Positions 6,566 to 26,667 are shown, numbered from the stretch's first letter. The stretch: DNA of 64,000 nucleotides from Candidatus Bathyarchaeota archaeon (GCA_963827165.1 CAWGZR010000006.1:32001-96000); one strand, 5' to 3'. Program-made: numbers and translations. The notes: generated from the sequence alone by a model not told the origin.

Positions 6566-6643
6566 TTCCAGCCACCCTAACCAGAAGTCTAATATGGCGA
6601 TAAAATTCTTTTGATAAGCAAATCCAACCAGGAACTAAAAAAC

Positions 6644-7855
6644 ATGGCAGAAAGCGTTTACAAACCGGATTTTCCAAGTGAAATAATCAGAGAAGGCAAA
6701 GTGCAAGTTTTAGTGCCCAAACTGGAAGCCTACAGCGTTAACCCGTCGGACTACGCGCCCTCTAAAGCACCAGTTTTCTACAACCCGATAATGGAGTTCA
6801 ACCGAGACCTCTCGGTTCTGGCATTCCAAGCGTACCAACGCATGGTTGACAGGGAAATCAGCATCTGTGAACCTTTAACCAGTCAAGGAATCCGAGGAGT
6901 CCGTTTCGCCAAGGAAATTGAAGGCATAAAGCGAGTTCTAATCGGGGACATAAACGAAAGGGCATTCAAAGTTGCAAAACATAACGTTCAACTCAATGGT
7001 TTAGAAAAAATCGTATCCGTGAAGCATAAAGACGCAAACTGCACTTTAAGCTGCAACGCGTCGCCTAAAAAACGCTTCGACATCGTCGATGTTGACCCTT
7101 TCGGCACGCCTGCCCCATTCATAGGTTCAGCCATACGTGCTCTTCGCAACCACGGTTTGCTGGCTTTAACCGCCACCGACTTGGCGCCGCTCTGCGGGGT
7201 GCACTCGAAAGCGTGCATACGAAAATACGGCGGAAAACCGCTCCGGACAGAGTACTGTCATGAACTTGCTATTCGGCTTGTTGCAGGCTGCACCGCCACC
7301 TTAGCTGCAAAACACGACGTTGGAATTCACGTGGTTTTTAGCCACAGTAGCGAACACTACATCAGGCTGTACTGTCAAATTGCTTATGGCGCAGAGAAGG
7401 GTGATGAAAGTATCAAAACGCTCGGGTACATTCTGCATTGCTTCAATTGTCTGCACCGGGAAACTATCCGTCAACCATTCGGAAATCTGACCTGCCCCGA
7501 ATGTGGCTCAAAAATGGATTTCGCTGGCCCTCTTTGGCTGGGAAACATCTTCGACCCAGAGTTTATTGAATCAATGATCAAAGAAAACCAGACTGTTGCT
7601 TTCAGGAATAACGCAAGAATATCTAAACTTCTTCTGTTGACAAAACAAGAGGCTACTGCTCCAATAACATATTTTTTGCTTGATAAACTCAGCGGGAAAC
7701 TGGGTTTGCCATCTCCATCCGTTCAAGCATTTTCAAATGCACTTCGAGGCAGAAACTACGAAGCGGTGCAGACCCATTTTAACAGTCGAGGCATTAGGAC
7801 GAACGCTCCTGCTATGACACTGCACAATCTGCTAAAGGAAGCAATTAGTCAATAA
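6644..7855 (+). CDS. trm1: tRNA (guanine26-N2)-dimethyltransferase
   Basis: VFYNP.MEFNRDLS, GIRGVR, DVDPFGTP, LTATD, C-x2-C zinc finger, GPLWLG, THF. Confidence 0.95.
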   Translation: MAESVYKPDFPSEIIREGKVQVLVPKLEAYSVNPSDYAPSKAPVFYNPIMEFNRDLSVLAFQAYQRMVDREISICEPLTSQGIRGVRFAKEIEGIKRVLIGDINERAFKVAKHNVQLNGLEKIVSVKHKDANCTLSCNASPKKRFDIVDVDPFGTPAPFIGSAIRALRNHGLLALTATDLAPLCGVHSKACIRKYGGKPLRTEYCHELAIRLVAGCTATLAAKHDVGIHVVFSHSSEHYIRLYCQIAYGAEKGDESIKTLGYILHCFNCLHRETIRQPFGNLTCPECGSKMDFAGPLWLGNIFDPEFIESMIKENQTVAFRNNARISKLLLLTKQEATAPITYFLLDKLSGKLGLPSPSVQAFSNALRGRNYEAVQTHFNSRGIRTNAPAMTLHNLLKEAISQ

Positions 7856-7876
7856 CCATAAAATTGTTTAATATCC

Positions 7877-8015
7877 GCAAATTTTTTTCTTTGTATTTTG
7901 GGCTGGTTTTTTGGTTTGGGGCTTGGATTGGTCGCAACTGGTCTCTAAAAACATCTATAAACATCTAAAAAGATCTAAAAACATCCATAAACGTCTAGAA
8001 ACATCTAAGAACATC
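7877..8015. repeat. Leader + decamer array element, copy A (69-bp leader, 7 x ~TAAAAACATC)
   Basis: Leader 7877-7945. Units taaaaacatc, tataaacatc, taaaaagatc, taaaaacatc, cataaacgtc, tagaaacatc, taagaacatc (7946-8015). Confidence 0.9.
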
Positions 8016-8051
8016 GCATTGGGAGAATTTTAGTTACATGCTTTCGATAAG

Positions 8052-8151
8052 GAAAATTTTTTTGTCTGCATTTTTGGTTGCTTTTTTGGTTTGGAAGCTT
8101 GAATCATCTGCAGGACGAGACTTTATTTGGCATAATTTGACATTATTTGAT
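8052..8151. repeat. Leader + decamer array element, copy B (70-bp leader, 3 x ~WTWATTTGAC)
   Basis: Leader 8052-8121 aligns with copies A and C with one indel. Units tttatttggc, ataatttgac, attatttgat. Confidence 0.8.
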
Positions 8152-8389
8152 AACATGAAGGGAGATATCAATAGATATTTGAGGCGGAGGCATCATTCAG
8201 AAGAATAGCTCCACCACGGAGAAAATTGCATACTTCATTTAAATTTGTAGTGCAAGTCAATAGACACCAATACAAAAACTTTTTCGCCACTGAAGATGCC
8301 AGCAAAATATCCGAGTTAAAATCACACTTTTTAGGTAACAAAAGTTTAAAGGGTAAAGCTACTGTCCTTAAAACAGCAAGGTAATTGTA

Positions 8390-9196
8390 ATGAATGATAA
8401 AATCGCGGTAATTGGCTCCGGAATGATGGGCGGCGCCATAATCAAAAGCTTAGCTAAAGGAGGCTACGAAGGCAAGTTGACAGCCGTCGATATCGCATTG
8501 GACAGGCTGAAAGAGTTCGAAACCCTCGGCGTTAAAACTTCCACCGACAACAAAAAATCCGCAGGCGACGCCGACATAGTTTTCATAATCGTCAAGCCAG
8601 GCGACGTAGCGAAGGTTCTCAAAGACATAAGTGGAGAAATCAAAGATAAACTGTTAATTTCGGTTGCAGCAACGGTTCCGCTGAAGTTTCTACGGAAGAA
8701 CGCGCCTGAAGCCCGAATCGTACGGATAATGCCCAACCTCGGCGCCTTAGTTCAAGCCGCTTACACGGCATACTGCTGCGAATCCGACGTTACCTCCCAA
8801 GACAAAGAGAAAGTTAAGACTTTACTCAGCATGTTTGGCATATGCGAAGAACTCGACGAAAAATACCTTGATGCTATAACCGCCCTCAGCGGGAGCGGCC
8901 CAGGCTACATGTCCATAATCATCGAGGCATTAACTTATGCAGGCTTAAAGGTAGGGTTACCACGCAACATCGCCCTAACCTGCGCAGCCCAAACGGTAAT
9001 GGCAACAGGCAAACTCGTCTTAGACCTCCATGAGGAACCATCAAAAATCAAGGATATGACCACCACACCCGGCGGAACAACAATAGAAGCTATCTACCAA
9101 ATCGAGCAAAGCCAAATCCGCCCTGCATTGATGCGCGCGATTGAAGAAGCTACGAAGAAAAGCCAGGAAATCCGAGAAAAACTCAACCTCAACTAA
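8390..9196 (+). CDS. proC: Pyrroline-5-carboxylate reductase
   Basis: IGSGMMGGA, IVKP, RIMPN, TALSGSGPGY, TTPGGTT motifs. Confidence 0.96.
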   Translation: MNDKIAVIGSGMMGGAIIKSLAKGGYEGKLTAVDIALDRLKEFETLGVKTSTDNKKSAGDADIVFIIVKPGDVAKVLKDISGEIKDKLLISVAATVPLKFLRKNAPEARIVRIMPNLGALVQAAYTAYCCESDVTSQDKEKVKTLLSMFGICEELDEKYLDAITALSGSGPGYMSIIIEALTYAGLKVGLPRNIALTCAAQTVMATGKLVLDLHEEPSKIKDMTTTPGGTTIEAIYQIEQSQIRPALMRAIEEATKKSQEIREKLNLN

Positions 9197-9211
9197 CCGC
9201 CCTGAGTCGCC

Positions 9212-9871
9212 ATGTTTGAAGCAGCAATTTTTGATTGGGACGGCACGTTAGGCGACACTCGCCAAGTAATAGTGGCTTCTTTTCAGAAGGCACTGAATGA
9301 AATCAACTGCAAAGTAAGCGACGAATATATTGAGCGTCGAATAGGTATCGGAGCAGCGGACACTTTTAGAGATATTCTGCGGTTTTCTAAAACGCCAATT
9401 GACGAAAAAACGGTTCAGCGCCTAGTCGAACGCAAAAGCGAACTTGAAATCGAATTAACCGACCAAGTGACACTCTTCCCCGGTGCAAAAGAGCTTCTTG
9501 ACACGTTGCATGGCAAAATCAAAATGTGTTTAGCATCAATGAACAACCGCTCAGTCATCACACATTTAATCAAAGCAAAAGGCTTAGAAAAATACTTCGA
9601 CGCAGTCCTTACAGCAGAGTCAATCACATATTCAAAGCCAAACCCAGAAATTTTCCTGAAGGCAGCAACTACCCTACGGGCAAAACCTGAAAAATGCGTT
9701 GTGATTGAGGATTCACTGTTCGGGGTTAAGGCCGCTAAATCCGCCGAGATGGGTTGCATCGCTGTTCTCACAGGGGTCTATTCTCAAGAGGAGCTCGAAG
9801 GGGAAAAGCCTGATTTGATTGTTTCCACTCTCCAAGATAAGCGAGTTGTTGAGCACATTCTGAGGCAATAA
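9212..9871 (+). CDS. HAD family phosphatase (beta-phosphoglucomutase-like)
   Basis: FDWDGTL, KPNPEIF, VIEDS..GV.AA. Confidence 0.92.
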   Translation: MFEAAIFDWDGTLGDTRQVIVASFQKALNEINCKVSDEYIERRIGIGAADTFRDILRFSKTPIDEKTVQRLVERKSELEIELTDQVTLFPGAKELLDTLHGKIKMCLASMNNRSVITHLIKAKGLEKYFDAVLTAESITYSKPNPEIFLKAATTLRAKPEKCVVIEDSLFGVKAAKSAEMGCIAVLTGVYSQEELEGEKPDLIVSTLQDKRVVEHILRQ

Positions 9872-9978
9872 CGCCCCACTTTACACATTGTGTGGTAGTC
9901 TCTTCACAATCACATAACTTTAAGAATTTACTGAATTAAATAATAATCATTCTCAAATCTGAGGGAAGGGAAAGTTCT

Positions 9979-10251
9979 ATGAAAAATTCTATCGAAAACA
10001 AAAAAACAAAGACACAAATGTTTCAAGTTCTTCTGCTTGACAACAATGCAAGCGACGACGTTGAAATCCAAGAAGCCGACCAAGTGAATTTCTCCCAAGT
10101 GAAAGAACACCTCAAAAACGGCGGATCAGTCTTCATCACAAGCAAAGACGCACAAAAAACATTTTACCCCAAATCTAAAGCTCAACAAAACTACAATAAA
10201 TCAAGAAGAATTTACGGAGCCCTTTTCCGGCAGTATTCGAGAAGTTCATAA
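9979..10251 (+). CDS. Hypothetical protein
   Basis: 90-aa ORF with upstream GAGGGAAGG and coding-like composition. Confidence 0.6.
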   Translation: MKNSIENKKTKTQMFQVLLLDNNASDDVEIQEADQVNFSQVKEHLKNGGSVFITSKDAQKTFYPKSKAQQNYNKSRRIYGALFRQYSRSS

Positions 10252-10256
10252 ATTGT

Positions 10257-10322
10257 GTGACGTGCATCCAGACGATTCATTTTACCCCCTCTCTCTTCCT
10301 TAATTTTTTGGATGCACGCCAC
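10257..10322. other. 14-bp inverted repeat enclosing a pyrimidine-rich loop
   Basis: gtgacgtgcatcca (10257-10270) versus tggatgcacgccac (10309-10322), 13/14 complementary, between convergent genes. Confidence 0.6.
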
Positions 10323-10464
10323 TCCCGCGAACTCAAACAACAATAAATCTTATCCGTAAAGGCATGTTTCCGCGATTTTTCCTTAAATTATCTCTTCAGC
10401 GTTGAATTAAGAAAAGAATGGGAATTAAATTTTCAAAGAAAAGAGAAAACTCTCAATAGCTAAG

Positions 10465-11568
10465 CTACTTCTTTCTTTTCATTGCCTGCGGAACATAGCC
10501 ACACCGCAGATCTGAACCCAAAATATCTCCAGTGTAATAAAGCGCTGCTGACCGACAACCGCCGCAGATATCCTTGTATTCGCAAACGCCGCATTTGCCT
10601 TTGATTTTGGTTTTATCTTTAACTTCAGCGAAAAACTCACTATTCTGCATCCCCTGCCAAATCTGCTCAAGAGACTCATCCCGAACGTTTCCAAGCCGGT
10701 AGGCGTCGTTGTAGCTGCAGGGTATGGCGTCGCCGTTTTCTGCTACGCTGAAGAATTTGCCGAAGAAGCATCTACCCAAAAAGAAGGTGTTGTACCAGTT
10801 TTCGAAGTCAGGCATGCCCCGTTGCTTCGCCACCCGCGCATAAAAAGGAATGTAAATGTTGATTCCAGGTTTCCCGTTGTATTCCAAGGTTAAATCATAA
10901 AGTTGATTGCATACCCACTCGTATTGTTGCGGCGTCAGGTCTGCACGCAGGGTTTTTTTGTCTTTGCTGTATGGGATGAACCCGTGAAACACAACCCACC
11001 GAGCGTTGTATTTGCGGGCTAAATCAAGGACATGACGCATGTCTTCCACGTCTGCGTTGGTGATTGGATCAGCGTTCGCGAAGGTGTAGACAAGACAGTT
11101 TAGAAGTTTCGCCTCTGAAAACATTTTTATGGCGGAAACAGCAGCCGCGTAAGCGCCGCTTCCTCGAATTGCGTCGTCTGTTTTTTCTGAGCCGTCGATG
11201 CTAACTGAAACTTTAACTTGATATTTGACGATGTTTTCTGCGGCTTCTTTATCCATCATGCGCCCGTCGGTTATGATGCTAGCGTTCAAACCGAGCTCTT
11301 TCGCATGGGCGATAACTTGGAAAAGGTCCTTTCGCAAAAACACCTGTCCGCCTGTGACGCCGAAGAAGCTTGCCCCGAAATCAGAGACTTGATCAACCAT
11401 TTTCAACGCAGCTGCGGTGTCAAGTTCGTTTGGAACCGCTGATTTACCAGCGGATGTACAGTGGACGCAGTTGCTGTCACATTGAAAGGTGCATCGCCAA
11501 GGAACAATGAATAAAGGTCCTTTTTCTTTCACGTTTTGCTTCTCCAAGATATTCATTATTGCATGCAA
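10465..11568 (-). CDS. Radical SAM protein with SPASM domain (AhbC/NirJ/PqqE-like)
   Basis: CDSNCVHC (CxxxCxxC), TGG, SIDG, and SPASM pattern C...G...PC...KCGVCEYKDICGGCR...C. Confidence 0.92.
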   Translation of the reverse strand: MHAIMNILEKQNVKEKGPLFIVPWRCTFQCDSNCVHCTSAGKSAVPNELDTAAALKMVDQVSDFGASFFGVTGGQVFLRKDLFQVIAHAKELGLNASIITDGRMMDKEAAENIVKYQVKVSVSIDGSEKTDDAIRGSGAYAAAVSAIKMFSEAKLLNCLVYTFANADPITNADVEDMRHVLDLARKYNARWVVFHGFIPYSKDKKTLRADLTPQQYEWVCNQLYDLTLEYNGKPGINIYIPFYARVAKQRGMPDFENWYNTFFLGRCFFGKFFSVAENGDAIPCSYNDAYRLGNVRDESLEQIWQGMQNSEFFAEVKDKTKIKGKCGVCEYKDICGGCRSAALYYTGDILGSDLRCGYVPQAMKRKK

Positions 11569-11710
11569 GATTATGCTATTTAACGCTTCACGTTTTCGTC
11601 TTATTTTTTCAAGTTCGGGTTCTGCCTCAACGAATGGAAAAGTTAATGATGAATTCCATAAAGGTTATAACTTTTTTCGGTATAACTAGATTGGAGAAGG
11701 CGAAAGGAGA

Positions 11711-11884
11711 ATGGATGAAGAAAGGCTGATTAGTGCAAGCCCGCAAAACTGCAGCCATCAAGAGCGGCAATTGTACACTGAAAGGTTTTTTGACATACTA
11801 AACGGTTTCGAGTTAACCTTTACGCGTTGCCCCAGCTGCCACAAAACTGTGAGTTTAGAAGCAAAAAAACTGAAAGAGGGCTAA
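11711..11884 (+). CDS. Small putative zinc-finger protein (57 aa)
   Basis: Below the ORF-track cutoff. SD-like AAGGAGA before ATG. MDEERLISASPQNCSHQERQLYTERFFDILNGFELTFTRCPSCHKTVSLEAKKLKEG with CxH and CPxC. Confidence 0.7.
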   Translation: MDEERLISASPQNCSHQERQLYTERFFDILNGFELTFTRCPSCHKTVSLEAKKLKEG

Positions 11885-11901
11885 AGCTTCAGATTGTGCC
11901 G

Positions 11902-12303
11902 CTATTTCTTTTCGTAAACGTAAAGGGTGCCTGCTTTAAGTAGATCTAAGGTTCGCTGTGTTTGGCCAATTGAAAGCTTGCATGTTTTAGGGTCGGATAG
12001 GAAGGGGAGCTTTTCAGGCGCGTTTTGGATGATATGAAGGTCCTCCCATGTTACTTTGATGTCATCGTAGGGGTATTGATGTTCTTCGTTTTCAACCCAG
12101 GTGCCTGCATCGAGCTCGTCGCCTTCCTCCAAGGTGGTGAAGGGTCCAAGCAGACTCTTGTCGTCGGAGTTGTAGAGGAAGACTACGGATCCAGTCTTCA
12201 GCTCTTCCGGTTTGGCTTTCTCACCCGTACACATGTAACGTTTCTGACTGATACACTGCTGCAAAGAAGATTTATCGCAGAAAAACACATATCCATCATA
12301 CAT
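11902..12303 (-). CDS. DCD (development/cell death)-like domain protein
   Basis: GYVFFC...C......G..VFLYN....L.GPF matches the DCD pattern as I recall it. Start trimmed to MYDGYVFF. Confidence 0.6.
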   Translation of the reverse strand: MYDGYVFFCDKSSLQQCISQKRYMCTGEKAKPEELKTGSVVFLYNSDDKSLLGPFTTLEEGDELDAGTWVENEEHQYPYDDIKVTWEDLHIIQNAPEKLPFLSDPKTCKLSIGQTQRTLDLLKAGTLYVYEKK

Positions 12304-12494
12304 AATTAACAGAACCTCTACAAATTCAAGTCCGTCGGCGCTTATTTCCTTTTTCCTTCCAACCTTCTTAATTTTCAAGACTCGCAGTTCATTAAGCAAG
12401 AGATTTGGTTGAATTAACAGGATGTTTAGCCTTTTTGTTGCCATGATTGTTATTAAGAACGATTTTTAATCCTTTAGCATTCGAAGAGAGAAAA

Positions 12495-13016
12495 ATGGAG
12501 AAAATCAAGTCACTAATAATCGCTGCATTGGCAATCGTTATTTTGGGTGCATTTTTCATTTCCACAGCTTTTGCATCTGATTCCACAGGCTTTAGCCTTG
12601 CTCTTTCTTCAAATCAGATACAGTATAAGATTCCTGCGGGAACTATGTTTAACGGTACAGTCGCCACCTCAGGCTGGGTTCGCGTCTGGGTTACTGAGCC
12701 CAGCGGAGGCGAAATCGTCAACTTAGGCATAATAGAAAAAACAACCAGTTTCGGCTTTATAGCGCAGCAAAACGGAACCTACACATTCAACTTCGAAAAC
12801 GACCTGCCCAACACAATCACAGTAACCTTCACCTACACCTCAAACCCACAGTTGCCAGACACTAATGCAGGAATACCACTAACATACATAATCTTCGTAG
12901 GAACTGTAGCCGTCGTTGGAAGCCTTCTGATATTCTTTGGGATTCGGCGCAAAACCAAAAAAGTGATGGCTGCCTACAAAAAAGCAGAATCTGCTAAGTC
13001 AAACGCCGCCAGTTAA
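12495..13016 (+). CDS. Membrane-anchored GOLD/emp24-like domain protein
   Basis: Signal peptide, beta-rich domain with FIAQQNGTYTFNFEN, C-terminal TM and basic tail. Confidence 0.65.
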   Translation: MEKIKSLIIAALAIVILGAFFISTAFASDSTGFSLALSSNQIQYKIPAGTMFNGTVATSGWVRVWVTEPSGGEIVNLGIIEKTTSFGFIAQQNGTYTFNFENDLPNTITVTFTYTSNPQLPDTNAGIPLTYIIFVGTVAVVGSLLIFFGIRRKTKKVMAAYKKAESAKSNAAS

Positions 13017-14401
13017 GGTTTGCTTAAATCTTGCTTTTTACGGTGGATGGCTGCCACTGTTGCGTTCACGTTTTTTTCTTCTACAACCAGTATGATCTGA
13101 GATGTGTGCGGGGCGAAAACTCCTCGCTTAATGTTGATTCCCTCAAGCGAACTAATTGCCATAGAAGCGACACCCGGCGAATCCTTCATCCTATCGCCAA
13201 TCAAAGTCACTACGCCCAAGCCATATTCAAGTCTCATTTTCTCGTCAAACCTCTTTAGCTTCTCCTCGTTTTTTCTAAGGAATTCTGCGTCTAAGAAGAG
13301 AAAATCACGGATTCGCTCACCCGTCTCAAGAGCTTCAGCGCCCAAATCCAAAAAGTCGTTCCTCCGCTCCCAAATCCGAAGTAAATCTTCAAGCGATCTG
13401 CTTTTCTCATCGTTCATCGTTAAAATTGCGCAGCCTGATTTACCCGTTAAGCATTTGACGACTTCTTCGTCGGTTGTTTCCGCCTCAATCGCTGAGTACA
13501 TTTCAGGTTCATCAATGGGCACTACCCGAAGCGGCTGCCTAAAGCGTCTGGCCATGGCTATGGCGGGGCTCTGCACGATCTTCATGCCCATCATCGAGGC
13601 TTTATGCGCTTCGTTGTAGGTTAACGCTTTGACATGCTCAGTTTTCTGTCCCTTCACAACTTTGGGGTCAGCGCTCTGCAGAGGCACGTCTTTGTAGAGG
13701 AGCGTTTGGGTATTGTAGATGTCTTTGAGCACGCAGGAGATGAAAACCGCTGTTAAATCTGATCCGCCTCTTCCCAAAACCGTTTCTAACCCATCGGATG
13801 TCATGCCTAAAAAGCCCGCTAAACAAAGGATTTTACCGTCTTCCAAAGGTCCAAGCAACGTGTGAACCCTTTTTTTGCTCTGCGCAACATGGGGCACGGC
13901 GTCCTCGAAATTGTCGTCCGTCACAATCGGCCACTCCTCCAAGGAAACATTGCAAGAATCTAAACCGTTGCTTCTCAAAATGTGAGCCATCAGAGAAGCC
14001 ATGGCAACTTCCCCGCCGAAAGTTAGAATTCTCGCTTTGACGTTGCCGCTGAACCGTTTATTAACTGAGTCAAGAGTGGCCTGCGTCAACGATTCAAAAT
14101 TAGACAAATCCGCCATAGCCTGCTCATGGAGCTCTTCGCTGACAAAATCCTTTGTCAATCGCCTGTAAACTTCGAAAACTGGTGCAAGGGGGAGAGCACA
14201 TAACTGCGCATAGGATCCTCCGATGTTTATAAGTGCATCAGTTGTGCCCATGGGAGCCGAAAAAACGATAATTGGACCGAACCCGTCTTTGGAACGGATC
14301 TCGCGTACGCGTTTTATGATTTTGGGGATTCCTTTCCCTTCGACATCCAAAAGACTGCCGCCAAACTTCGCTACTGAAAGAGACTTGAAACCGCATTCCA
14401 C
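13013..14401 (-). CDS. Aspartate kinase
   Basis: VAKFGGS, SA, GF.G, LGRGGSDLTA, ADPK, LTY.EA, C-terminal ACT-like domain. Confidence 0.9.
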   Translation of the reverse strand: MECGFKSLSVAKFGGSLLDVEGKGIPKIIKRVREIRSKDGFGPIIVFSAPMGTTDALINIGGSYAQLCALPLAPVFEVYRRLTKDFVSEELHEQAMADLSNFESLTQATLDSVNKRFSGNVKARILTFGGEVAMASLMAHILRSNGLDSCNVSLEEWPIVTDDNFEDAVPHVAQSKKRVHTLLGPLEDGKILCLAGFLGMTSDGLETVLGRGGSDLTAVFISCVLKDIYNTQTLLYKDVPLQSADPKVVKGQKTEHVKALTYNEAHKASMMGMKIVQSPAIAMARRFRQPLRVVPIDEPEMYSAIEAETTDEEVVKCLTGKSGCAILTMNDEKSRSLEDLLRIWERRNDFLDLGAEALETGERIRDFLFLDAEFLRKNEEKLKRFDEKMRLEYGLGVVTLIGDRMKDSPGVASMAISSLEGINIKRGVFAPHTSQIILVVEEKNVNATVAAIHRKKQDLSKP

Positions 14402-15050
14402 CTAACAAGAGAAGGCAACCGAACTCTCGCTTTAATAATTTTCTGACACTCTGCCATAGTTTTTTTCGCAAGAGAAAGGATCTGCAATTTTTGTTTGGCT
14501 GTTTTATGTTTCTTCCGGAGGGGCCCGACGGAGGGTCATTGTGAATGCGAGGTCGGTGCAATTCGTGAATATGGAAACGCAAGAACTTCGAGCACACGTC
14601 ATTGCTTAAGCTTTCAGGTTCAAAGTGACAAAAAGGTTCAAACTATTGCCAGATATGTCCTGTTTGCCTTGTTTTTCGCTTTCGCGGAGGTATGTCAAGC
14701 ATACTGGCATCGCTTCCGTTGGTTTGGTGCTTGGGTTTTTCTGTAGTTGTGTTGTACTGTTCATGTGTTACACTTCTATACACTTTGTGTAGTAAGTCGT
14801 AATATAAAACATTATTTTATTTTTTGACATATATCGAAAACCGACACATCAATCCCAAATAGAAACGCAAAAATCTGCAAAATTGCCGTCCTGCAAAACC
14901 CTGAAAATGCAATTGTTACTTTGTTTTGGTTCGGTTGGGCTTTGTTTAGTTTATGTGTATTTTTGAAGAACAAATATTCAGGTATATCGCCTCTCAATAA
15001 TGTTTATTAAGTCTTAATATACCATGCATTTTGATTAGGAGCGAAACAAA

Positions 15051-15506
15051 GTGACACTAGCAAAAGCAAAGTTAACAATAATCCTCTTGGTAATAGCAGC
15101 ATTCGCAGCGGCAGGAATAACCTACGCAGCCATAACCATCAATCAAAACATACCCTCCGGAGGAACAATCACGGCGGGCCCAAACGTAGGAATCTACTCA
15201 AACAACCAGTGCACAAATTCAATTTCCACAATAAACTGGGGATCCATAGAAGCAGGAGGCAGCGCCCAACAGATAGTTTACGTTGAAGACACGGGCGGCA
15301 GCGCCATGACTTTAAGCATAACCATAAGCAACTGGAGCCCCTTAGCCGCCAGCACCTACATGACCCTAACATGGAATGGACAAGGAACACAAATCCAACC
15401 AGGAGCCAACAACGCTTTAGCCGTCACGTTTACTTTGAACGTGTCACCCAGTATAACAGGCATCTCAAGTTTTAGCAACTCAATCACTATATCGGGGACA
15501 GGCTAA
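15051..15506 (+). CDS. Secreted beta-sandwich protein (paralog of 19905-20393)
   Basis: Signal peptide ending AGITYA. VGIYSNNQCTNSISTINWGSIEAG...SNWSP...YMTLTWN shared with the paralog. Confidence 0.85.
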   Translation: MTLAKAKLTIILLVIAAFAAAGITYAAITINQNIPSGGTITAGPNVGIYSNNQCTNSISTINWGSIEAGGSAQQIVYVEDTGGSAMTLSITISNWSPLAASTYMTLTWNGQGTQIQPGANNALAVTFTLNVSPSITGISSFSNSITISGTG

Positions 15507-15801
15507 AAGGCTCCGACCAATCTCTTTTTTGTCCATTCAAATGAATTAATTTGAAATGTTGAATAAAGTTCATGCATTGCTTCCAGGCACCGGTTTTTGT
15601 TCATTTGGTTTCCGATTTAATTCGCAGGGAGAATTCTCTTAGGAATTTTGCCCATTAGAAGGACAGAAAACTCATCAGAACAATTTGAAGGTTTTAGCGT
15701 TTTTGTATGGAATACTCAAACCGTGATACTCAAACTAACATAGAATCGCTTTGAAACTTTTGATGATCGCGCAAGGGGAGGATTTTGACACTGGAAATCC
15801 T

Positions 15802-15930
15802 GCAAATTCTTTTGTTTGTGTTTTGGGTTGCTTTTTTGATTTAGGGCTTGGATCGGTTGCAGGTTGAGTCTACTAAAGTCAACTATAGTCAATAAAAGTC
15901 TACTAAAGTCAACAAACGTCAGTAAAACTC
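15802..15930. repeat. Leader + decamer array element, copy C (69-bp leader, 6 x ~WACTAAAGTC)
   Basis: Leader 15802-15870, 55/69 identical ungapped to copy A by manual count. Units tactaaagtc, aactatagtc, aataaaagtc, tactaaagtc, aacaaacgtc, agtaaaactc. Confidence 0.9.
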
Positions 15931-16199
15931 AAAAGATTAAGCAAGGACCAATTTGGGAGTGACTGAGCCGACCGTCAGCCCAGCGGTTAACCTTCATTAC
16001 GCCTCCTTATGGCCTCTTCAGATACTCAAATCCTTGAAACGCCTTACGAGTTGGTCTTTCCTTCCTAGTGCACCTGCAACTTTTGGTTCAATACTTATTC
16101 GACGATTTCGACTTAAAAAACTAAATATTGTTTTTACATCATAAACATCCGAGTAAAAAGAGCTATTAGGTGAAGCATTGGGCATATTTCAAATTGTAA

Positions 16200-19100
16200 T
16201 TACGCCTCATCAGGTTTTCGTCTTAAACGTCTAACTGCTACTACTGTGTATATCAAAACGATTTCTGGAACAGTCAAGCCAACTGCAAGGAAGGGTGATA
16301 TTGATTTGCCTTTTGTTTCTAAAGGCGCTCCAAACTGTATTGATACTTGATGTGTGCTGAAATGAGTCGTATACCACACATAATAGTTGCTGGTATCTTT
16401 TGTGTTGCCTTGGTTTTGGGCAATTTGACCGTCGATGTAGATTGTTGGTGTAGTTCCATAGGGCACTGAAATTTTCGGGATAGTAATGTTACTGAAGCCT
16501 GTTGTTCCACTTACGCCTGTTACAGTAAAAGAAACTGTAGTCGTCGTGGCAGACTGGTTTGTTGTGATTGCAATGTTGGTCATTTGTGAACTGGTAATGT
16601 TTCCGCTGATTCCTAGATCGACTTTTGCGCCACTAGATGTCGTTGCTGTCACATATTCTGTGGGTGTTGGGGTGGGAGTGGTTTTGGGTTTAGGTGTTGC
16701 GGTAGGGGTTGACGTTGAGGGAGGAGGAGTTGGCGTTGAAGTTGAATTTGGAGAATTCACGGTAATCGAGACAGCGTTAGAAGTAAACGTAATCGGTACA
16801 GAAGCGCTATCAGCTACCTTGCAAGTAATCGAATGCGAAGATCCCGTAGCAGTATAAGAATAAGTTGCACTATCAGTGCCAACCGCAGTAACGTCCTCAT
16901 ACCACTGGTAGTGAACAACACCAGAACCGCCACTAGCCGAAGCCGTGAATGTCTCGGTCTGACCTGCATCTAAAGTAATTGGACCAACAGGCGTGATGCT
17001 AACCGTTGGCGAAGTATTAACAGTAACATTCGCCGCAGTAGACGGAGCCGAAGTCAAACCTGAACTATCAGTAACCGTTACAGTGATCAAGTAAGAACCC
17101 GCAGACCCAGGAACAAAACTAAATGTCGACGCAATCGCGCCAGTTTGGGCAGAACCATCAACATACCATTGATAACTTTTGTAACTGCCTGAACCGCCGC
17201 CAGGAGTAGCTGAGAAAGTATTGTTCTGACCGATATCCATAGTCCAGGAAGAAGGTGACACAGCAACAGACAGAGTAGCATTCACCGTTATCCCAGTTAG
17301 GGAACCAGTGATCGAGTTAGTGACTGTGTCTGTGGCAGTAATCGATTGTAAACCAGCAGTCTTCAAAGTTACTGTGAAAGAGCCAACACCACTCACAAGA
17401 CCAGCATTCGCAGGCAAAACCGCCTTACTATCACTAGAAGTGATCTTAACCGTACCCGCATAACTCGTAACCGTATTGTTATATGCATCCTTAGCAGTCA
17501 CCGTAAAACTGTGAGCAACACCAGCCACAGTAGAACTAGGAAACCCAGAAACCACAAAACTCGCAACACCGGCTACATTCACTGTTATGTCATTTTGAAG
17601 GCCAGTAATCGAACTAGTCACCGTGTCCGTAGCCGTAATAGACTGAGAACCAACGGTTTCCAAAACAACACTGAAAGAACCAGTACCATCCGTAAGAACA
17701 GAATTCAGAGGTAAAACCGCTTTGCTATCACTCGTTGTAATCGCGACCGTGCCAGCATAGCCCGTAGCAACGTTACCAGACATGTCGTAAACCGTAACCT
17801 TAACAGTGTGAGCGACACCGGCAACGGTGGGACTCGGGAAACCAGAAACCACAAAATAATCACCAGATGCAGCACTCACCAGTATTCCACTCTGAGAACC
17901 GGTAATCGAACTAGTCACCGTGTCCGTAGCCGTAATAGATTGAGAACCAGCAGTCTTCAAAGTTACTGTGAAAGAGCCAACACCACTCACAAGACCAGCA
18001 TTCGCAGGCAAAACCGCCTTACTATCACTAGAAGTGATCTTAACCGTACCCGCATAACTCGTAACCGTATTGTTATATGCATCCTTAGCAGTCACCGTAA
18101 AACTGTGAGCAACACCAGCCACAGTAGAACTAGGAAACCCAGAAACCACAAAATGCGTAGCAGAACCAGGATTCACCGTCAAAGAGGCAGGAGAACCAGA
18201 AGCACCATTATAGTTAGTATCACCAGTATAAACCACATCAAACTGGTAACTGCCAGTAGTCAAAGGAGTATAGGTCGCAGAAGCAGAACCACTGCTCAAA
18301 GATACCGCAGAACCAATATTGGAAAAACCGCCGCTGCCAATTTCCACCTGAAAAGTCACATTTCCAGTAGGAGTAGCACCGCTACCGGAAACAGTAACCG
18401 ACAACGACACAGAAGTTTCCACAGTAGTAGAACCTGAAGGACTCAAAGTCGGAACAGGAACTGTTGCGGTCGCCTTATTAACCGTTAAAGTTCCAGAGGC
18501 AAGACCGGTGCCTGGAACATAGTTGCTGTCGCCTTGATACACAGCCTCAAAACTATAGGTGGTTGGAATCAAAGGAGTGTACTGAACGGACACAGAGTTG
18601 CCTGATAGCGGAATCGCAGTGCCAAAATTGGCATAGGAACTGCCATTAATAGAAACTTGGAACTGCACATCACCAGTCGGAGCCGTAATGCCACCAGAAC
18701 CGGTAACAGTAGCTGAAACCATAACAGAAGCACCCAAAATAATCGGACTAGCAGGAGTAAAGGTTGCAGCACCAATCGTTGCCGTCGCCTCATTCACTGC
18801 TAAAGTTCCAGAAGCACCACCACTAATGGCAGAAAGATAATTGCTGTCGCCCTCATACACAGCCTTGAAAGTGTAAGTAGTTGCAGTTGAAGGAGTGTAG
18901 GAAGTGGAAGCTAAGCTTCCTGACAATACAACTGGTGAACCAAAAGCGGCATAGGAACTGCTGTTAATTGAAACTTGGAACTGCACATCACCAGTCGGAG
19001 CCGTAACCTCTGCTGGACCTGTAACAGTGGCTGAAACCATAACAGAAGCACCCAAAGCAATTGGGCTAATAGGAGAAAATGTTGCAGCGCCCACTGTAGC

Positions 19101-19508
19101 CGTCGCTTGGTTAACAGTCAAAGGTGTCGGATCGCTAGTATTCTCTTCATAAATGCTATCGCCGTTATAAATTACGTCAAACTGGTAATTGCCAGCAACC
19201 AAAGGAGTATAAGTTGTGGTGGCATAAGCATCACTGTTCAAATTAACCGCAGAACTGATATTGGAGTAAGCCCCACCGCCAATTTCCATCTGAAAAGTTA
19301 CGGTCCCAGAAGGAATACTCATTTGACCGGAAACAGTAACGGATAACGACACAGAAGTACCAAGAGCAGTGGAACCCGAAGGATTCAAAGTTGGCGCAGA
19401 AACCGTCGGCTGAAGCAGAGCTTTGGTCTGCATACTTGTCAATGCGAAAATTGATGCCGAAATTAGAAATGCGATTATTAGGATTTGTATTTTTTTCATG
19501 TTTTTCAT
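16200..19508 (-). CDS. Large membrane-anchored surface protein with Ig-like/PKD-like repeats
   Basis: Signal peptide, repeated PTG.V.FQV...Y.GDSNY Ig modules, VVSGFPS..VAG modules, PT-rich linker, C-terminal TM with RRLRRK. Confidence 0.9.
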   Translation of the reverse strand: MKNMKKIQILIIAFLISASIFALTSMQTKALLQPTVSAPTLNPSGSTALGTSVSLSVTVSGQMSIPSGTVTFQMEIGGGAYSNISSAVNLNSDAYATTTYTPLVAGNYQFDVIYNGDSIYEENTSDPTPLTVNQATATVGAATFSPISPIALGASVMVSATVTGPAEVTAPTGDVQFQVSINSSSYAAFGSPVVLSGSLASTSYTPSTATTYTFKAVYEGDSNYLSAISGGASGTLAVNEATATIGAATFTPASPIILGASVMVSATVTGSGGITAPTGDVQFQVSINGSSYANFGTAIPLSGNSVSVQYTPLIPTTYSFEAVYQGDSNYVPGTGLASGTLTVNKATATVPVPTLSPSGSTTVETSVSLSVTVSGSGATPTGNVTFQVEIGSGGFSNIGSAVSLSSGSASATYTPLTTGSYQFDVVYTGDTNYNGASGSPASLTVNPGSATHFVVSGFPSSTVAGVAHSFTVTAKDAYNNTVTSYAGTVKITSSDSKAVLPANAGLVSGVGSFTVTLKTAGSQSITATDTVTSSITGSQSGILVSAASGDYFVVSGFPSPTVAGVAHTVKVTVYDMSGNVATGYAGTVAITTSDSKAVLPLNSVLTDGTGSFSVVLETVGSQSITATDTVTSSITGLQNDITVNVAGVASFVVSGFPSSTVAGVAHSFTVTAKDAYNNTVTSYAGTVKITSSDSKAVLPANAGLVSGVGSFTVTLKTAGLQSITATDTVTNSITGSLTGITVNATLSVAVSPSSWTMDIGQNNTFSATPGGGSGSYKSYQWYVDGSAQTGAIASTFSFVPGSAGSYLITVTVTDSSGLTSAPSTAANVTVNTSPTVSITPVGPITLDAGQTETFTASASGGSGVVHYQWYEDVTAVGTDSATYSYTATGSSHSITCKVADSASVPITFTSNAVSITVNSPNSTSTPTPPPSTSTPTATPKPKTTPTPTPTEYVTATTSSGAKVDLGISGNITSSQMTNIAITTNQSATTTTVSFTVTGVSGTTGFSNITIPKISVPYGTTPTIYIDGQIAQNQGNTKDTSNYYVWYTTHFSTHQVSIQFGAPLETKGKSISPFLAVGLTVPEIVLIYTVVAVRRLRRKPDEA
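17351..18153. repeat. Exact intragenic direct repeat, 209 bp (17351-17559 = 17945-18153)
   Basis: Sequences read identical at offset 594. Confidence 0.85.
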
Positions 19509-23476: not shown

Positions 23477-26400
23477 TCACGGGCTCTTTGCTTTAACCGT
23501 TGGTTTTTTTGCTTTTCGTAATACAATCAAGACTACTGCAACTATCACAACGATGACTACGACTACTGTTACTCCGATGCCTACGTCTAGAGCTAAACTT
23601 GACTGAGATTTGCTTGGCGAAGCCGATGGGGTTGGAGATGGCGTTGGTGTTGCAGTAGGTTTAGCTGTTGGCTTAGGTGTAGGAGTTGGAGTAGCTGTTG
23701 GTTTGATTGTTGGAGTAGGTGTAATGATAGGAGCTGATGTCGGATATGGAGTTGGAGACGGAGTTGGAGATGGAGTTGGCGTTGGAGAGGGAGACGGAGT
23801 TGGAGATGACGAAGTTGTTAAAGATTCGGCGGCTGTTATTGTGTCGGTTCCAGTTATTGTTGCTGTTGTAAAGGCAGAGGTTGCATTCGCGAATTCGGTT
23901 GATCCAGTGGTAGATGACCATGAAGAGAATGTATAACCGCTTGCAGAGGTGGCATTTATTTGAAGTGTACCTGCAGTCTGCCAAACACTGGAGCCAGATG
24001 GATTGGTTGAACCGCTTCCTGAAGGACTCACAGCAAAAGTCACCTGATATTGATCATCATAAAGCGGAACGATCGTTATGAGCCCATTTACCGTTCCTGA
24101 TGTGCCTGAAGTTGCAGCCCACTGCTCAGTTCCAGAAGTGATTAGATTATTAACGCTCCAGGTTGAACCAGCATCCAGCCAAACCGTTAGAACAGAAGTC
24201 GTCAAAGTATTCGTAGAAGGTTGACCTAAAGTAATCCCACTAAGAACGACGGGAGAAGAAGGCGTTGAACTGTCAGAAGTCGAGTAACTCGCAGTCACTT
24301 GATACTGAGTCGTGTATACTACGGACTGAGATGCATCAGCATTACTGACTACTATCGGCCCAGAGGAAGTTGAAACATATTGTATTCCTGTGCCGCCTGA
24401 TATTGGGGCTGACGCATTCCATGAGTAACTCCCTGAAGTTACGTCAGTGAATATTATGGAAGTTGTCGTTGACGGTGGTGACATTTGACCATTAAACATT
24501 ACGGTCCAAGATGTTGCAGATGGCAATCCGTTTTCGGTGAAAGTTACAGTGTAGTACGTGCCTAAAGCGTAAACATTACCATCATTAGAACCAACGTAGA
24601 CTATGCCGTTATCAACCGCGGGCGAAGACACAACTGGCCCGCCTGTAGTGTAGCTCCAGAGTTGGGAGCCACTTGAAGCATCCAAAGCATAAATCTTATC
24701 GTCATCTGAGCCTACATAGACCACTCCGTTGACAATTGCGGGAGACGAGTAAACTAAACTACCTGTGGTAAAGCTCCATAGTTTAGCACCAGTTAAAGCA
24801 TCGAAAGCATAGACATTGTGATCATAAGAACCAACGTAGACTACACCATTATATACAGCAGGAGATGACTCGACCGCACTGCCAGTGGTATAATTCCAAA
24901 TTAAACTGCCGCTGGAAGCATCCAAAGCATAGACATTAGCATCATTAGACCCAACGTAAACTACACCATTGACTACAGCAGGAGACGATTCTACAGGAGC
25001 GCCAGTAGTGTAACTCCAGAGTTTGTTGCCGTAGGTAGCGTTCAGAGCATAGACATCACCATTATTCGAGCCTACGTAGACCACGCCGTTGGAAACAGCG
25101 GGAGATGAATAGACAGAGCCGCCTGTGGGAAAGCCCCAAAATTCAATCCCTGTGGTTGCGTTCAATGCATATAGATCGCCGTTACTGGTTCCAATGTAGA
25201 CAACGCCGTCATTAACCGTAGGAGATGAAAAAACGGCGTCGGTTGTGAAGATCCACATTTCAGCCCCAGTGGTGGCATTCAGAGCATAAACATAGCCGTT
25301 ATCCTCGGAAGCGATGTAGACAATGCCGTTATAAACTGAAGGGGATGTGTCGATTAGACCGCCGGTGGTTTCAGTTAGGCTGGTACTGGTGAAGTTCCAT
25401 ATGGCAGCACCGCTTGAAGAATTTAAAGCGTGAACATCACCGTCATAAGAGCCAAAGTAGACGATACCGCCAGATATAGCAGGAGAAGAATCAACTAGGC
25501 CGCCAGTAGTGAAGTTCCACTGTTGGCTGCCAGTTGAAGCATCCAGAGCGTAGACATTGCCATCATAAGAACCGACAAAGAGTAGACCGTTAACGGTGTC
25601 AACAGCTGGAGATGAAAAAACGGGACCGCCAGTGGCAAAACTCCATACCTTTGTACCAGTACCGGCAGTTAAAGCATAGACACTATCATCACCTGAGCCA
25701 ACGTAAACATTCCCGTCGAAAACAGCAGGAGATGACCAAACCTCGCTTCCAGATTTATAGCTCCAGAGCTTAGCGCCAGTCGCAGCATTCAAAGCATAAA
25801 TATAATCATCCCAAGCACCTACGTAGACTACGCCGCCGATGACTGCAGGAGTAGACTGAACTAGTGGGCAGTGGGATTTTGAAACGCCCATATTTTAGCG
25901 CCATTTGTAGCATTTAAGGCATCAACATAACCACCACCAGTACCTATGTAAAGTATGCCATTGACCACATTAGCAGAAGAATCAACTAAATCATCAAAGC
26001 CAGTACCGTAGGTCCATATCTTAGCACCTGTTGTGGCATTGAAAGCATAAACATTATTGTCCCAAGCACCAATATAGAGGAAACCGTTGACGACGACAGG
26101 AGATGAATCAATCGTGCCGGCTGAGGAATCTGTGGAATTGCTCCATATTTTGACACCGGTTGCGGCATTCAAAGCGAAAATATTTCCGGCCCAAGAGGCG
26201 ATGTAAACAGTGCCGCCGACTATAGCAGGGGACGCCCAAACTGAGCTCCCAGTGTTAAAGCTCCACAGTTTAGCACCAGTCGCAGCGTTTAAAGCATAAA
26301 GATTGCCATCCCAAGAGCCGACGTAGACTACGCCGCTATCTACTTTGGGAGATGACCAAACTGCGCTGCCCGTGGTGAAACTCCACAGTTTAGCGCCGTT

Positions 26401-26667
26401 TGTTTCATTTAAGGCATAAACGTTGCCACCATTAGAACCGATGTAGACAATGCCGTTGGCAATAGCAGGAGATGAAACAATCCAGCTGCTCGTGGTGTAT
26501 TTCCATAGTTCGGCACCGCTAGAGGGGTTTGATGTGGAGGCTCCTGTGTGCGTGGTATCGTGGTGGAAGGTCGTCCAATCATCGGTAGCACTCGCCACTC
26601 CAGCATATATAAACGAAAATAATAATACAGCTAAAAGGAACGATATTGCAAGTTTCTTTTTCAACAT
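23477..26667 (-). pseudogene. PQQ-type beta-propeller repeat surface protein split by a 1-nt frameshift (ORFs 25861-26667 and 23477-25891)
   Basis: Continuous SSPA..G.VYVGS.DG..YAL.A.TG...W repeats across both ORFs. One signal peptide and one C-terminal PT linker plus TM. Adding one C at the GGG (25866-25868) fuses them as AKIWAFQNPTAPLVQSTPAV. May be a sequencing error. Confidence 0.85.

Follow-up and report, generated by a model that had tools for sequence, protein, structure and literature searches.

The closest described analogue of the array part of the repeat element analyzed here is the operator of MraZ, which consists of 4-nt boxes with 6-nt spacers, is bound cooperatively and is read via residues K13, R15 and R86 of the protein (PMC12957436). 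The initial annotation of our locus stated that no element with this architecture had been described. For the module as a whole this stands, as we found none in the literature or in Rfam, but the MraZ operator comes close to its arrays. Both systems place boxes with a 10-bp period directly before the regulator's own gene. MraZ is a tandem double AbrB-like unit that contacts DNA with two basic residues at positions i and i+2 near the N-terminus (K13 and R15); the covarying residues here are 16 and 18. MraZ has a single locus with 3 to 4 boxes, all of the same type, whereas our elements have 2 to 12 boxes of more than 10 types at about 96 sites, together with a conserved leader. Moreover, MraZ is a bacterial protein of about 140 amino acids that forms ring oligomers (octamers or dodecamers) and is encoded first in the dcw (mraW-fts) cluster, whereas the protein described below is archaeal, has 92 amino acids, matches the Pfam MraZ family only below the cut-off (E-value of 0.13) and is found without dcw context or a conserved neighbor in 24 loci. 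PhS018 of Pyrococcus horikoshii (PDB accession number 2GLW) is also archaeal, has 92 amino acids and is the best structural match. It is presented as an uncharacterized, predicted DNA-binding protein forming a single-chain swapped-hairpin barrel, and the available part of the source describes no binding site or repeat array for it (PMC4333400). From the same part of that source, the likeness to AbrB, MazE and VapB lies in the small beta-barrel DNA-binding domain of the superfamily.

Our protein differs from the AbrB, MazE and VapB proteins in being a predicted single-chain double domain with no partner gene in 24 loci and no match to the SpoVT/AbrB family of Pfam. Regulators of the AbrB, MazE and VapB type autoregulate their own promoter and act as short-chain dimers, usually paired with a toxin or an effector. 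Other comparisons concern the DNA. The pneumococcal BOX elements with their repeated middle box, REP/BIME sequences and MITEs are modular, occur in tens to hundreds of intergenic copies and are patchily distributed among relatives. Our elements resemble them in their short modular intergenic copies, repeated middle part and patchy spread, but have no inverted termini or target duplications, carry class-specific 10-bp arrays tied to a protein and form head-to-tail chains. In plasmid R1, a small DNA-binding protein occupies the arrays of 10- to 11-bp repeats that make up parC. Like our elements as we read them, such centromeres and iterons have short direct repeats in phase, on which numerous copies of a small DNA-binding protein assemble; they differ from our elements in the fold of the reading protein and in the setting, which here is about 96 chromosomal sites with no adjacent par or rep gene.

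The window, a stretch of 64,000 nt from a Candidatus Bathyarchaeota archaeon (GCA_963827165.1, CAWGZR010000006.1:32001-96000), contains three modules on the plus strand, A (7877 to 8015), B (8052 to 8151) and C (15802 to 15930), each consisting of a leader followed by an array of 10-bp units. These positions, the unit counts of seven, three and six, and the 55 of 69 identical positions in the ungapped alignment of leaders A and C are as initially annotated. The lower ungapped identity of leader B with leaders A (36) and C (41) arises because leader B needs one gap. A 43-nt core quoted in the annotation turned out to be a composite consensus that is absent from the window as a literal string. 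The G/T-rich, conserved leader of module A (7874 to 7945; nhmmer match at C6:39877-39945, E-value of 3.6e-15) begins at about the position where homology to a duplicate on contig C3 starts, and its last 4 to 5 bases (TCTC) form box 0. Array A (7946 to 8015) continues with TAAAAACATC, TATAAACATC, TAAAAAGATC, TAAAAACATC, CATAAACGTC, TAGAAACATC and TAAGAACATC, all composed of an A-rich spacer and a CATC box. A short trailer (8016 to 8051), copied along with module A as part of a 233-nt duplicate at C3:82714-82945 (95% identical), leads to module B, which is chained head to tail after module A and comprises a leader (8052 to 8121; nhmmer E-value of 3.2e-16) and three units with a TGAC/TGGC box (8122 to 8151). 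Leader C (15802 to 15870; nhmmer E-value of 8.1e-16), which as a BLAST query returned itself as the top match and 41 further matches in the genome, is followed by six units with an AGTC box (15871 to 15930), a class that also precedes an AbrB-like gene at C7:3043-3315. Tandem Repeats Finder assigned a period of 10 to all three arrays, and the final leader bases carry the first box in phase with the array, as had been proposed. The annotation listed no open reading frame; only short ones of 40 to 58 amino acids overlap the elements, and these we take as spurious. The modules are not CRISPR arrays, as their units abut without unique spacers and are only 75 to 80% alike. Rfam gave no match at the gathering score over the window, and none at an E-value of ≤1 over both loci.

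Array A and its copy on contig C3 share 95% identity, identical variant units included, and within a class the homology between copies extends to the individual units. Whole arrays have thus been copied with their variant units in the same order, contrary to the earlier suggestion that repeats are added enzymatically to a fixed primer by a telomerase- or reverse transcriptase-like activity or by slippage. That suggestion fits the in-phase repeat after a fixed leader and the variable unit number within one class (4 to 12 in the AGTC class), but such variation would result from slippage or unequal exchange now and then, and no module lies within 20 kb of the only reverse transcriptase locus of the genome (C3:147878-148521). 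Plasmid-type iterons or centromeres, the analogy also drawn in the annotation, likewise sit poorly with 96 dispersed chromosomal copies and with the lack of par, rep or any other conserved partner genes beside the modules in 24 loci. We regard either origin, synthesis onto a primer or a plasmid-type locus, as extremely improbable.

An iterated leader profile detected 96 matches in the 3.13-Mb genome and none in the reversed genome, and a 22-nt leader core (≤3 mismatches) occurs at two sites in the window compared to none in 100 shuffles. Over the 60 nt following the leader, 78 of the 96 matches show a lag-10 self-identity of ≥0.5, a value reached by 7 of 2,000 random windows. Conversely, all 60 strict period-10 arrays of the genome adjoin a leader. 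On metagenome contigs, 69 of 122 leader matches have a lag-10 self-identity of ≥0.5 over 60 nt, and the remaining 53 have 2 to 3 boxes or none. The module is built of a conserved leader of about 64 to 70 bp and, in phase with it, 2 to 12 ten-bp units, each comprising a 3- to 4-bp box and an A/T-rich spacer. The 24 congeners carry between 0 and 125 copies each, and 16 genomes from the order's other families gave no leader match; in the genomes sampled, the module family is restricted to one genus. The leader accompanies every strong array here, though an operator needs none, which counts against a plain operator.

Seven of the 96 modules precede a gene for an AbrB-like protein; the three in the window do not. 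Seen from the gene, however, the linkage is complete, with a module directly upstream at all seven loci of the genome that encode this 92-aa, PhS018/MraZ-like swapped-hairpin protein. In the genus as a whole, a leader match lies within 420 nt upstream of 61 of the 69 full-length AbrB-like genes, and seven of the other eight genes have a divergent leader ending in TTTGGTTGCGTC followed by 2 to 3 boxes. Both searches covered 24 congeners, of which 15 have module and gene, 7 have neither, 2 have modules only and none has the gene only. Homologues in outgroups beyond the genus have 3 to 5 phased boxes between canonical BRE/TATA elements and the start codon. An AlphaFold2 model of the protein (pLDDT 84.6) has PhS018 as its best match among solved structures in Foldseek (TM score of 0.74 both ways, E-value of 5.7e-5, 24% identity, 92 versus 92 amino acids); MraZ chains follow with TM scores of 0.46 to 0.48 and E-values of 1.5e-2 to 4.6e-2. 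The sub-threshold Pfam MraZ match (PF02381) was seen in one of three proteins scanned and covers 12 residues with 12.7 bits versus the required 23, and the same three proteins gave no match to SpoVT/AbrB (PF04014) at an E-value of ≤1.

We propose that the modules are probably dispersed MraZ-style operator arrays, that is, docking sites for AbrB/MazE/MraZ-superfamily proteins of 92 amino acids. Each array would be a cooperative multisite platform for paralogous single-chain swapped-hairpin-barrel proteins with a PhS018-like fold. One protein copy would occupy each box and read it through the loop around residues 16 to 18, and adjacent copies would lie on the same face of the helix, like MraZ on GTG(G/T) boxes with 6-nt spacers. 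Because each paralogue gene has its own module before its start codon, the proteins may well be autoregulated; binding, repression and any effect on neighboring genes are inferred.

The box also varies with the protein. Computed over 60 distinct protein/array pairs, the mutual information between protein columns and the 3-nt box peaks at residue 16 (z score of 12.9), followed by residue 18 (6.7) and the next column (5.0). Both covarying residues sit in the predicted DNA-binding loop. Part of the covariation reflects shared descent, since a gene and its upstream array are inherited together. A within-clade test, which is the only one that addresses shared descent, comprises 11 proteins that are 71 to 89% identical outside the loop: the nearest neighbor has the same box in only 4 of 11 cases, while residue 18 is K in all five proteins with GAC and T or A in all four with GTT. 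The initial annotation had suggested phased protein-loading sites one helical turn apart. In kind this is supported by the modules before AbrB-like genes and by the covariation, but its specific analogies are not: positioning of histones would not explain why boxes follow residues, and the centromere comparison is discussed above.

The same data bear on whether the arrays are architectural DNA, in which phased A-tracts would curve the DNA and place archaeal histones or chromatin proteins independently of the AbrB-like proteins. Unit positions 4 to 6 are indeed 86 to 93% A/T, mostly A, every 10 bp, and for arrays A and C Tandem Repeats Finder scored a super-period of 30 bp as well. However, the best-kept positions are the G/C-containing boxes rather than the A-tracts (conservation within an array at positions 8 to 10 is 0.87 to 0.92 for 421 solo units and 0.91 to 0.93 for 45 gene-linked units), box identity varies by class and follows protein residues, and some arrays are T/C-rich (CCGTC and CGTT classes). 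A purely architectural role is thus very doubtful.

The modules might instead be genes for noncoding RNAs, each a transcription unit whose RNA would start with a conserved 5′ segment and continue with a series of 10-nt motifs, acting, for example, as a sponge or scaffold for an RNA-binding protein. The strand asymmetry, with G/T-rich leaders and A-rich arrays on one strand, would suit such an RNA, as would the trailers of the CATC class, which end in T5-7 followed by GG. Two 151-nt contigs of a peat metatranscriptome, 100% identical to positions 15847 to 15997 and 15991 to 16141, cover array C together with the 3′ portion of its leader and sequence further downstream. Yet these contigs come without strand or ends, such libraries can hold DNA, and the coverage may be read-through from a convergent gene; the 3′ end of a convergent gene for a 1102-aa Ig-domain protein (16200 to 19508) faces array C. 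The leader contains runs of T6 and T7, at which archaeal RNA polymerase should terminate on that strand. There is no Rfam match even at an E-value of ≤1, 12 trailers yielded no consensus fold, and the covarying residues belong to the loop that reads DNA in MraZ. Overall, an RNA gene is unlikely.

The remaining 89 of the 96 modules are solo copies, among them the three in the window. Modules A and B lie between trm1, encoding a tRNA N2,N2-dimethylguanosine methyltransferase (6611 to 7855, plus strand; Pfam TRM PF02005, E-value of 1.5e-116), and proC (Pfam P5CR_dimer, E-value of 7e-33), a synteny held across the genus. The spacer has 534 nt here and 65 to 75 nt in the five relatives measured; it is also short in three more relatives, as read by eye. 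One relative (G016) has a single module in this spacer in the opposite orientation, and the other 10 have no leader match there. The insertion of about 465 nt continues on the plus strand beyond array B (8152 to 8321) without a recognized feature and without an AbrB-like remnant in a six-frame profile search. Downstream of it the native proC upstream region (AACAAAAGTTTAAAG..., 8322 to 8389, plus strand), which is kept in the short spacers of relatives, is intact. Three further solo loci are not common to the five nearest sampled relatives, so that none of the four tested loci is shared with them. The solo copies look like recent insertions.

Such insertion polymorphism is what a selfish or neutral, nonautonomous family of intergenic repeats would produce, in which solo copies are functionless and only the gene-linked founders are excepted. 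Consistent with this, the copy number varies from 0 to 125 among congeners and drops to none in other families, orthologous sites are empty or have received an independent insertion in the opposite orientation, recent intragenomic duplicates have their start at the leader's 5′ edge, many arrays fall into classes without a cognate gene, and there is no orientation bias towards neighboring genes (44 solo modules on the same strand as the downstream gene and 43 on the opposite strand). The signatures of known mobile DNA were sought in 87 copies. As the initial annotation had noted, terminal inverted repeats are absent: the best 14-mer complementarity of the 5′ end with downstream sequence averaged 10.66 compared to 10.55 and 10.62 in controls, and two weak inverted pairs in the window did not stand out from controls that were reversed or only complemented. 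For direct matches, the best 10-mer averaged 8.21 versus 8.17 in the control, giving no sign of a target-site duplication, although short ones could escape because the 3′ border is inexact. Neither of these two hallmarks of a MITE or cut-and-paste transposon was thus seen. The assembly, which is 94.5% complete, contains no match to the IS200-type Y1 transposase (PF01797) that would mobilize IS200/IS605-derived elements, and viral contigs contain no leader match. More than half of all modules are in strictly head-to-tail chains, including chains of unlike cassettes, with 30 of 30 adjacent pairs co-oriented, which requires a directed process or selection. Chains of this kind are also a trait of integron-like cassette arrays, whose attachment sites form hairpins; the modules gave no inverted-repeat signal. 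Solo boxes are kept as well as gene-linked ones, although youth alone could explain this. We consider purely mobile DNA a rather improbable account; it overlaps with operator arrays and does not exclude them.

If the modules are operator arrays, the solo ones would be copies of this unit that reached further intergenic spacers with no gene attached. They would most likely provide extra or decoy binding sites, and some may be functionless passengers. Module B is 240 nt upstream of proC with the native proC promoter intact in between; together with the missing orientation bias, this leaves a regulatory role of solo copies unsupported. Thirty-eight arrays are in classes without a gene-linked member (CATC, 12; CGTC, 11; AAGC plus ATGC, 9; TGAC, 5; CATA, 1), which counts against the operator reading. 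The 60 protein/array pairs of the genus included no CATC-type gene. Because neither the CATC nor the TGAC class has a gene-linked member, arrays A and B are orphans. Array C belongs to the AGTC class, which has 19 members, three of them gene-linked.

The three modules of the window, A (7877-8015) and B (8052-8151) in the trm1-proC spacer and C (15802-15930), lie where the initial annotation had placed them: their leaders end at 7945, 8121, and 15870 and are followed directly by 7, 3, and 6 exact 10-bp units, and Tandem Repeats Finder returned a period of 10 in all three. Leaders A and C agree, as reported, at 55 of 69 ungapped positions. The 43-nt "core" quoted for the leader turned out to be a composite consensus, and its literal string does not occur in the window. 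The elements had also been described as free of ORFs, which is correct for long ORFs, but short ones (40 to 58 aa) do overlap them. No Rfam family matched in the window at the gathering score, or over the two module-bearing loci at an E-value of ≤1. The observation itself is borne out and lies well beyond chance. We found nothing in print on such a system in a search conducted largely outside subscription journals. Three peat metatranscriptomes cover small parts of the window, as contigs only; one of them has contigs over 15847-16141, whose strand and ends are not readable, and none of the contigs falls on module A or B. The trailers gave no consensus RNA fold.

The window spans C6:32001-96000 of its genome, and its copies belong to a large family. 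A leader profile seeded with the three window leaders and iterated three times gave 96 matches in the window's own genome (3.13 Mb in 14 contigs, 94.5% complete), 87 of them at an E-value of <1e−3, and none in the reversed genome. As the initial annotation had proposed, a period-10 array follows the leader: over the next 60 nt, lag-10 self-identity was ≥0.5 for 78 of 96 matches versus 7 of 2,000 random windows, and the mean was 0.62 at lag 10 compared with 0.24 to 0.31 at the other lags from 3 to 19. Most of the 18 matches below the cutoff have just two or three units. In the other direction, every one of the 60 strict period-10 arrays found genome-wide lies next to a leader. Leader and array are one unit here; the association does not extend to all metagenome contigs, where a long array follows 69 of 122 leader matches and the remaining 53 have two or three boxes or none. 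A refuting observation named by the initial annotation, leaders that lack an array, is thus partly seen outside this genome. Within arrays the box (unit positions 8 to 10) is the most conserved part (0.87 to 0.93), and positions 4 to 6 are 86 to 93% A/T. The array is indeed in phase with the leader, the final bases of which form a box of the array's own type. Typing by a crude parser, which left 19 copies untyped, gave 19 AGTC, 12 CATC, 11 CGTC, 9 AAGC/ATGC, 7 TCTC, 5 TGAC, and 4 CGTA arrays plus smaller classes. The leader model matched 17 of 24 congeneric genomes, with 0 to 125 copies per genome, and none of 16 genomes from the order's other families.

What could such arrays be for? Some of them lead into a small gene whose product, a 92-aa AbrB-like protein of the AbrB/MraZ superfamily, begins with MPL. 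A six-frame profile search found seven AbrB-like loci in the genome, five of them intact; the copy on contig C5 has a divergent C terminus, and one copy on C3 is frameshifted. All seven have a module directly upstream, and only 7 of the 96 modules have such a gene behind them. Genus-wide, 61 of 69 full-length AbrB-like genes have a leader match within 420 nt upstream. Seven of the other eight are preceded by a divergent leader ending in TTTGGTTGCGTC and two or three boxes, and one gene has neither. The gene-linked arrays that were listed end 10 to 60 nt before the start codon. The protein occurs in 35 of 60 congeners. Among the 24 congeners covered by both searches, gene and modules occur together in 15 and are both absent from 7; modules without the gene occur in 2, and the gene without modules in none. 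Because the genomes are kin, this phyletic pattern is suggestive and does not amount to a statistical test. No conserved neighboring gene was found in 24 loci.

Pfam gave only a subthreshold match for the AbrB-like protein (MraZ, E-value of 0.13). The closest structure to its AlphaFold2 model (pLDDT of 84.6) is PhS018 of Pyrococcus horikoshii (PDB accession number 2GLW), which is of equal length (TM-score of 0.74; E-value of 5.7e−5), followed by MraZ chains, including those from new cryo-EM complexes with promoter DNA (E-values of 1.5e−2 to 4.6e−2). PMC4333400 describes PhS018 as an uncharacterized archaeal protein, related as a single chain to the AbrB-type swapped-hairpin barrel and predicted to bind DNA. 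For MraZ, PMC12957436 reports three or four GTG(G/T) boxes upstream of its own gene, six nucleotides apart, cooperative binding via K13, R15, and R86, and a transcription start inside the first box. Homologues of the AbrB-like protein outside the genus (present in 14 of 201 same-class genomes, a count that includes the window's own genome) have no leader; their three to five phased boxes lie downstream of a canonical BRE/TATA and ahead of the start codon. Because these outgroup homologues have boxes without a leader, the box array seems to be older than the leader.

To ask whether the proteins read their arrays, we scored every column of the protein alignment for mutual information with the 3-nt box across 60 distinct protein/array pairs, as a z-score against shuffles. 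Residue 16 reached 12.9 and residue 18 reached 6.7; the next column reached 5.0, even though other columns were equally variable. Both residues lie in the loop immediately before a conserved (V/I)Q(I/V)PK segment, and they share the i, i+2 spacing of K13 and R15 in MraZ. Because gene and array are inherited together, we also looked within a single clade, whose 11 proteins share 71 to 89% identity outside the loop and in which only 4 of 11 nearest neighbors have equal boxes. Here, lysine at position 18 goes with GAC in 5 of 5 cases and threonine or alanine with GTT in 4 of 4, with asparagine-GTG and threonine-GCC occurring once each. This within-clade test is our strongest evidence, and from it we infer that each paralogue probably reads its own box. 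With respect to the window, the genome has no gene-linked member of the CATC class (array A) or the TGAC class (array B), and the 60 pairs contained no gene of the CATC type. A plausible candidate reader exists in the genome for array C (AGTC) only, namely, the protein encoded at C7:3043-3315. Neither an AbrB-like gene nor its remnant lies behind modules A, B, or C.

How did modules come to stand without a gene? The trm1 and proC genes (assigned by Pfam) are adjacent throughout the genus, separated by 65 to 75 nt in five measured relatives (G004, G042, G003, G021, and G045) and by a spacer that is short by eye in three more (G047, G013, and G051). In the window this spacer is 534 nt long and contains modules A and B, and the native upstream sequence of proC is unbroken 3′ of the insertion. 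In a relative, G016, this spacer contains a single module of a different class (AAAGTA) in reverse orientation, and a profile scan of 12 orthologous loci detected modules only in the window's genome (two matches, plus strand) and in G016 (one match, minus strand). For three further solo loci of the window's genome, the five closest sampled relatives lack a module at the corresponding site; some of these empty sites are spacers of 21 to 93 nt. Since the Ig-domain gene flanking copy C belongs to a multicopy family, synteny at that locus is uninformative. An exact 27-mer from the trm1 end, used to look for strain variants of the trm1-proC insertion in metagenomes, gave no hits.

The stretch comprising module A and half of leader B recurs at C3:82714-82945 with 95% identity. 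Recent intragenomic duplicates start 55 to 76 nt before the leader 3′ end (95 and 110 nt in two cases) and have variable ends. Head-to-tail chains account for 52 of the 96 modules, as 16 pairs, 5 triplets, and a single run of five. Orientation is shared in every one of the 30 adjacent pairs up to 450 nt apart, with neighbors of differing classes, and random placement in noncoding DNA gave 5.5 adjacent pairs on average and 14 at most. Modules are clear of crudely called genes in 80 of 87 cases; 44 modules share the strand of the gene downstream of them and 43 do not, and the 125 flanking genes are ordinary housekeeping genes by eye. No recurring conserved small ORFs were found behind solo modules. 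We detected no signal of terminal inverted repeats or target site duplication, no Y1 transposase in the genome, and no leader pattern on viral contigs. A co-occurring reverse transcriptase, which the initial annotation had considered, is not borne out, as the genome's sole such locus lies more than 20 kb from any module. Modules are thus copied by some process into fresh intergenic sites, often side by side and in a single direction. From −95 to +100, the solo module at C5:220363 (minus strand) matches the gene-linked one at C10:66142 with 94% identity, and it retains the first dozen or so AbrB-like codons; therefore, some solo copies are truncated module-plus-gene units. By eye, a module lies within about 1 kb of 5 or 6 of the 36 predicted tRNA genes (e.g., C10:80904, C6:31578, C5:314148/314726, C10:90263, and C5:164496), with about 1 expected from module density; the excess could mean that both sit in intergenic DNA or that modules integrate close to tRNA genes.

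The leader is conserved on a par with the boxes, and the G of its GCTTGRAT motif, at position 44, is kept in 84 of 96 copies. A TATA promoter was considered and set aside as unproven: tRNA genes of this genome use promoters of the AAGC+TTTAAATA type, which the T7 and T6 runs of the leader do not resemble. A few GCTTAAAT variants and the outgroup promoters keep the idea alive. The T-runs should, we infer, halt transcription arriving from upstream. A scan for sigma-70 promoters and terminators, a model unsuited to an archaeon, stayed at chance level. At five metagenome loci (L164, L184, L226, L255, and L282), a canonical archaeal TATA box, GTATATAAAG, stands after the 5′ two-thirds of the leader in place of the array, which hints that the leader may be an upstream promoter-associated element.

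The best-supported reading is that the arrays are MraZ-style operators for PhS018-like proteins, dispersed as a quickly turning-over family. The window's copies are gene-less insertions with an uncertain, possibly nonexistent, regulatory use. A bolder reading, which we consider improbable, sees in the modules a natural system of portable operator cassettes in which leader site, residue code, and operator moves act jointly. The leader would then be an attachment or recombination site for one-orientation insertion, often behind an existing module; all adjacent pairs are co-oriented, and their members differ in class. Small proteins would have a simple, evolvable code, with residues 16 and 18 setting the 3-nt box, and the lineage would rewire or insulate promoters by shifting operators instead of regulators. 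This would be integron-like logic with binding sites as the cargo. If the arrays are read as the operator hypothesis proposes, they and their proteins offer a compact natural case in which one or two loop residues alter the DNA specificity of a protein family, and the dozens of matched protein/site pairs in genomes would make the recognition code directly testable. Operator arrays would then act as dispersed, fast-turnover repeats in an uncultured archaeal genus, with bearing on the birth and spread of regulatory sites, given that solo copies outnumber AbrB-like regulator genes about 13 to 1. It would also provide the first functional handle on PhS018-type proteins.

Several other features of the window and its genome were recorded. 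A perfect 474-bp tandem duplication (2.0 copies, 100% matches) lies at 39824-40766 in an apparent coding region, with CCAACA-type short repeats just past it. Period-9 repeats (CCGTTTGTT and similar) at 43-143, continuing to about 360, would encode on the opposite strand a collagen-like triplet-repeat protein stretch at the window edge. A large surface-type protein with Big_3_5, Filamin, and PKD domains, multicopy across the genus, is encoded at 16200-19508 on the minus strand, and others lie at 28518-29634 and 24796-26455; these proteins have internal repeats of 297 to 300 bp and 120 bp. The only RVT_1 match in the genome, C3:147878-148521 (minus strand), extends across two neighboring reading frames, suggesting that the gene is frameshifted or interrupted. 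ARAGORN called a tRNA-SeC at C4:157457-157540 (minus strand).
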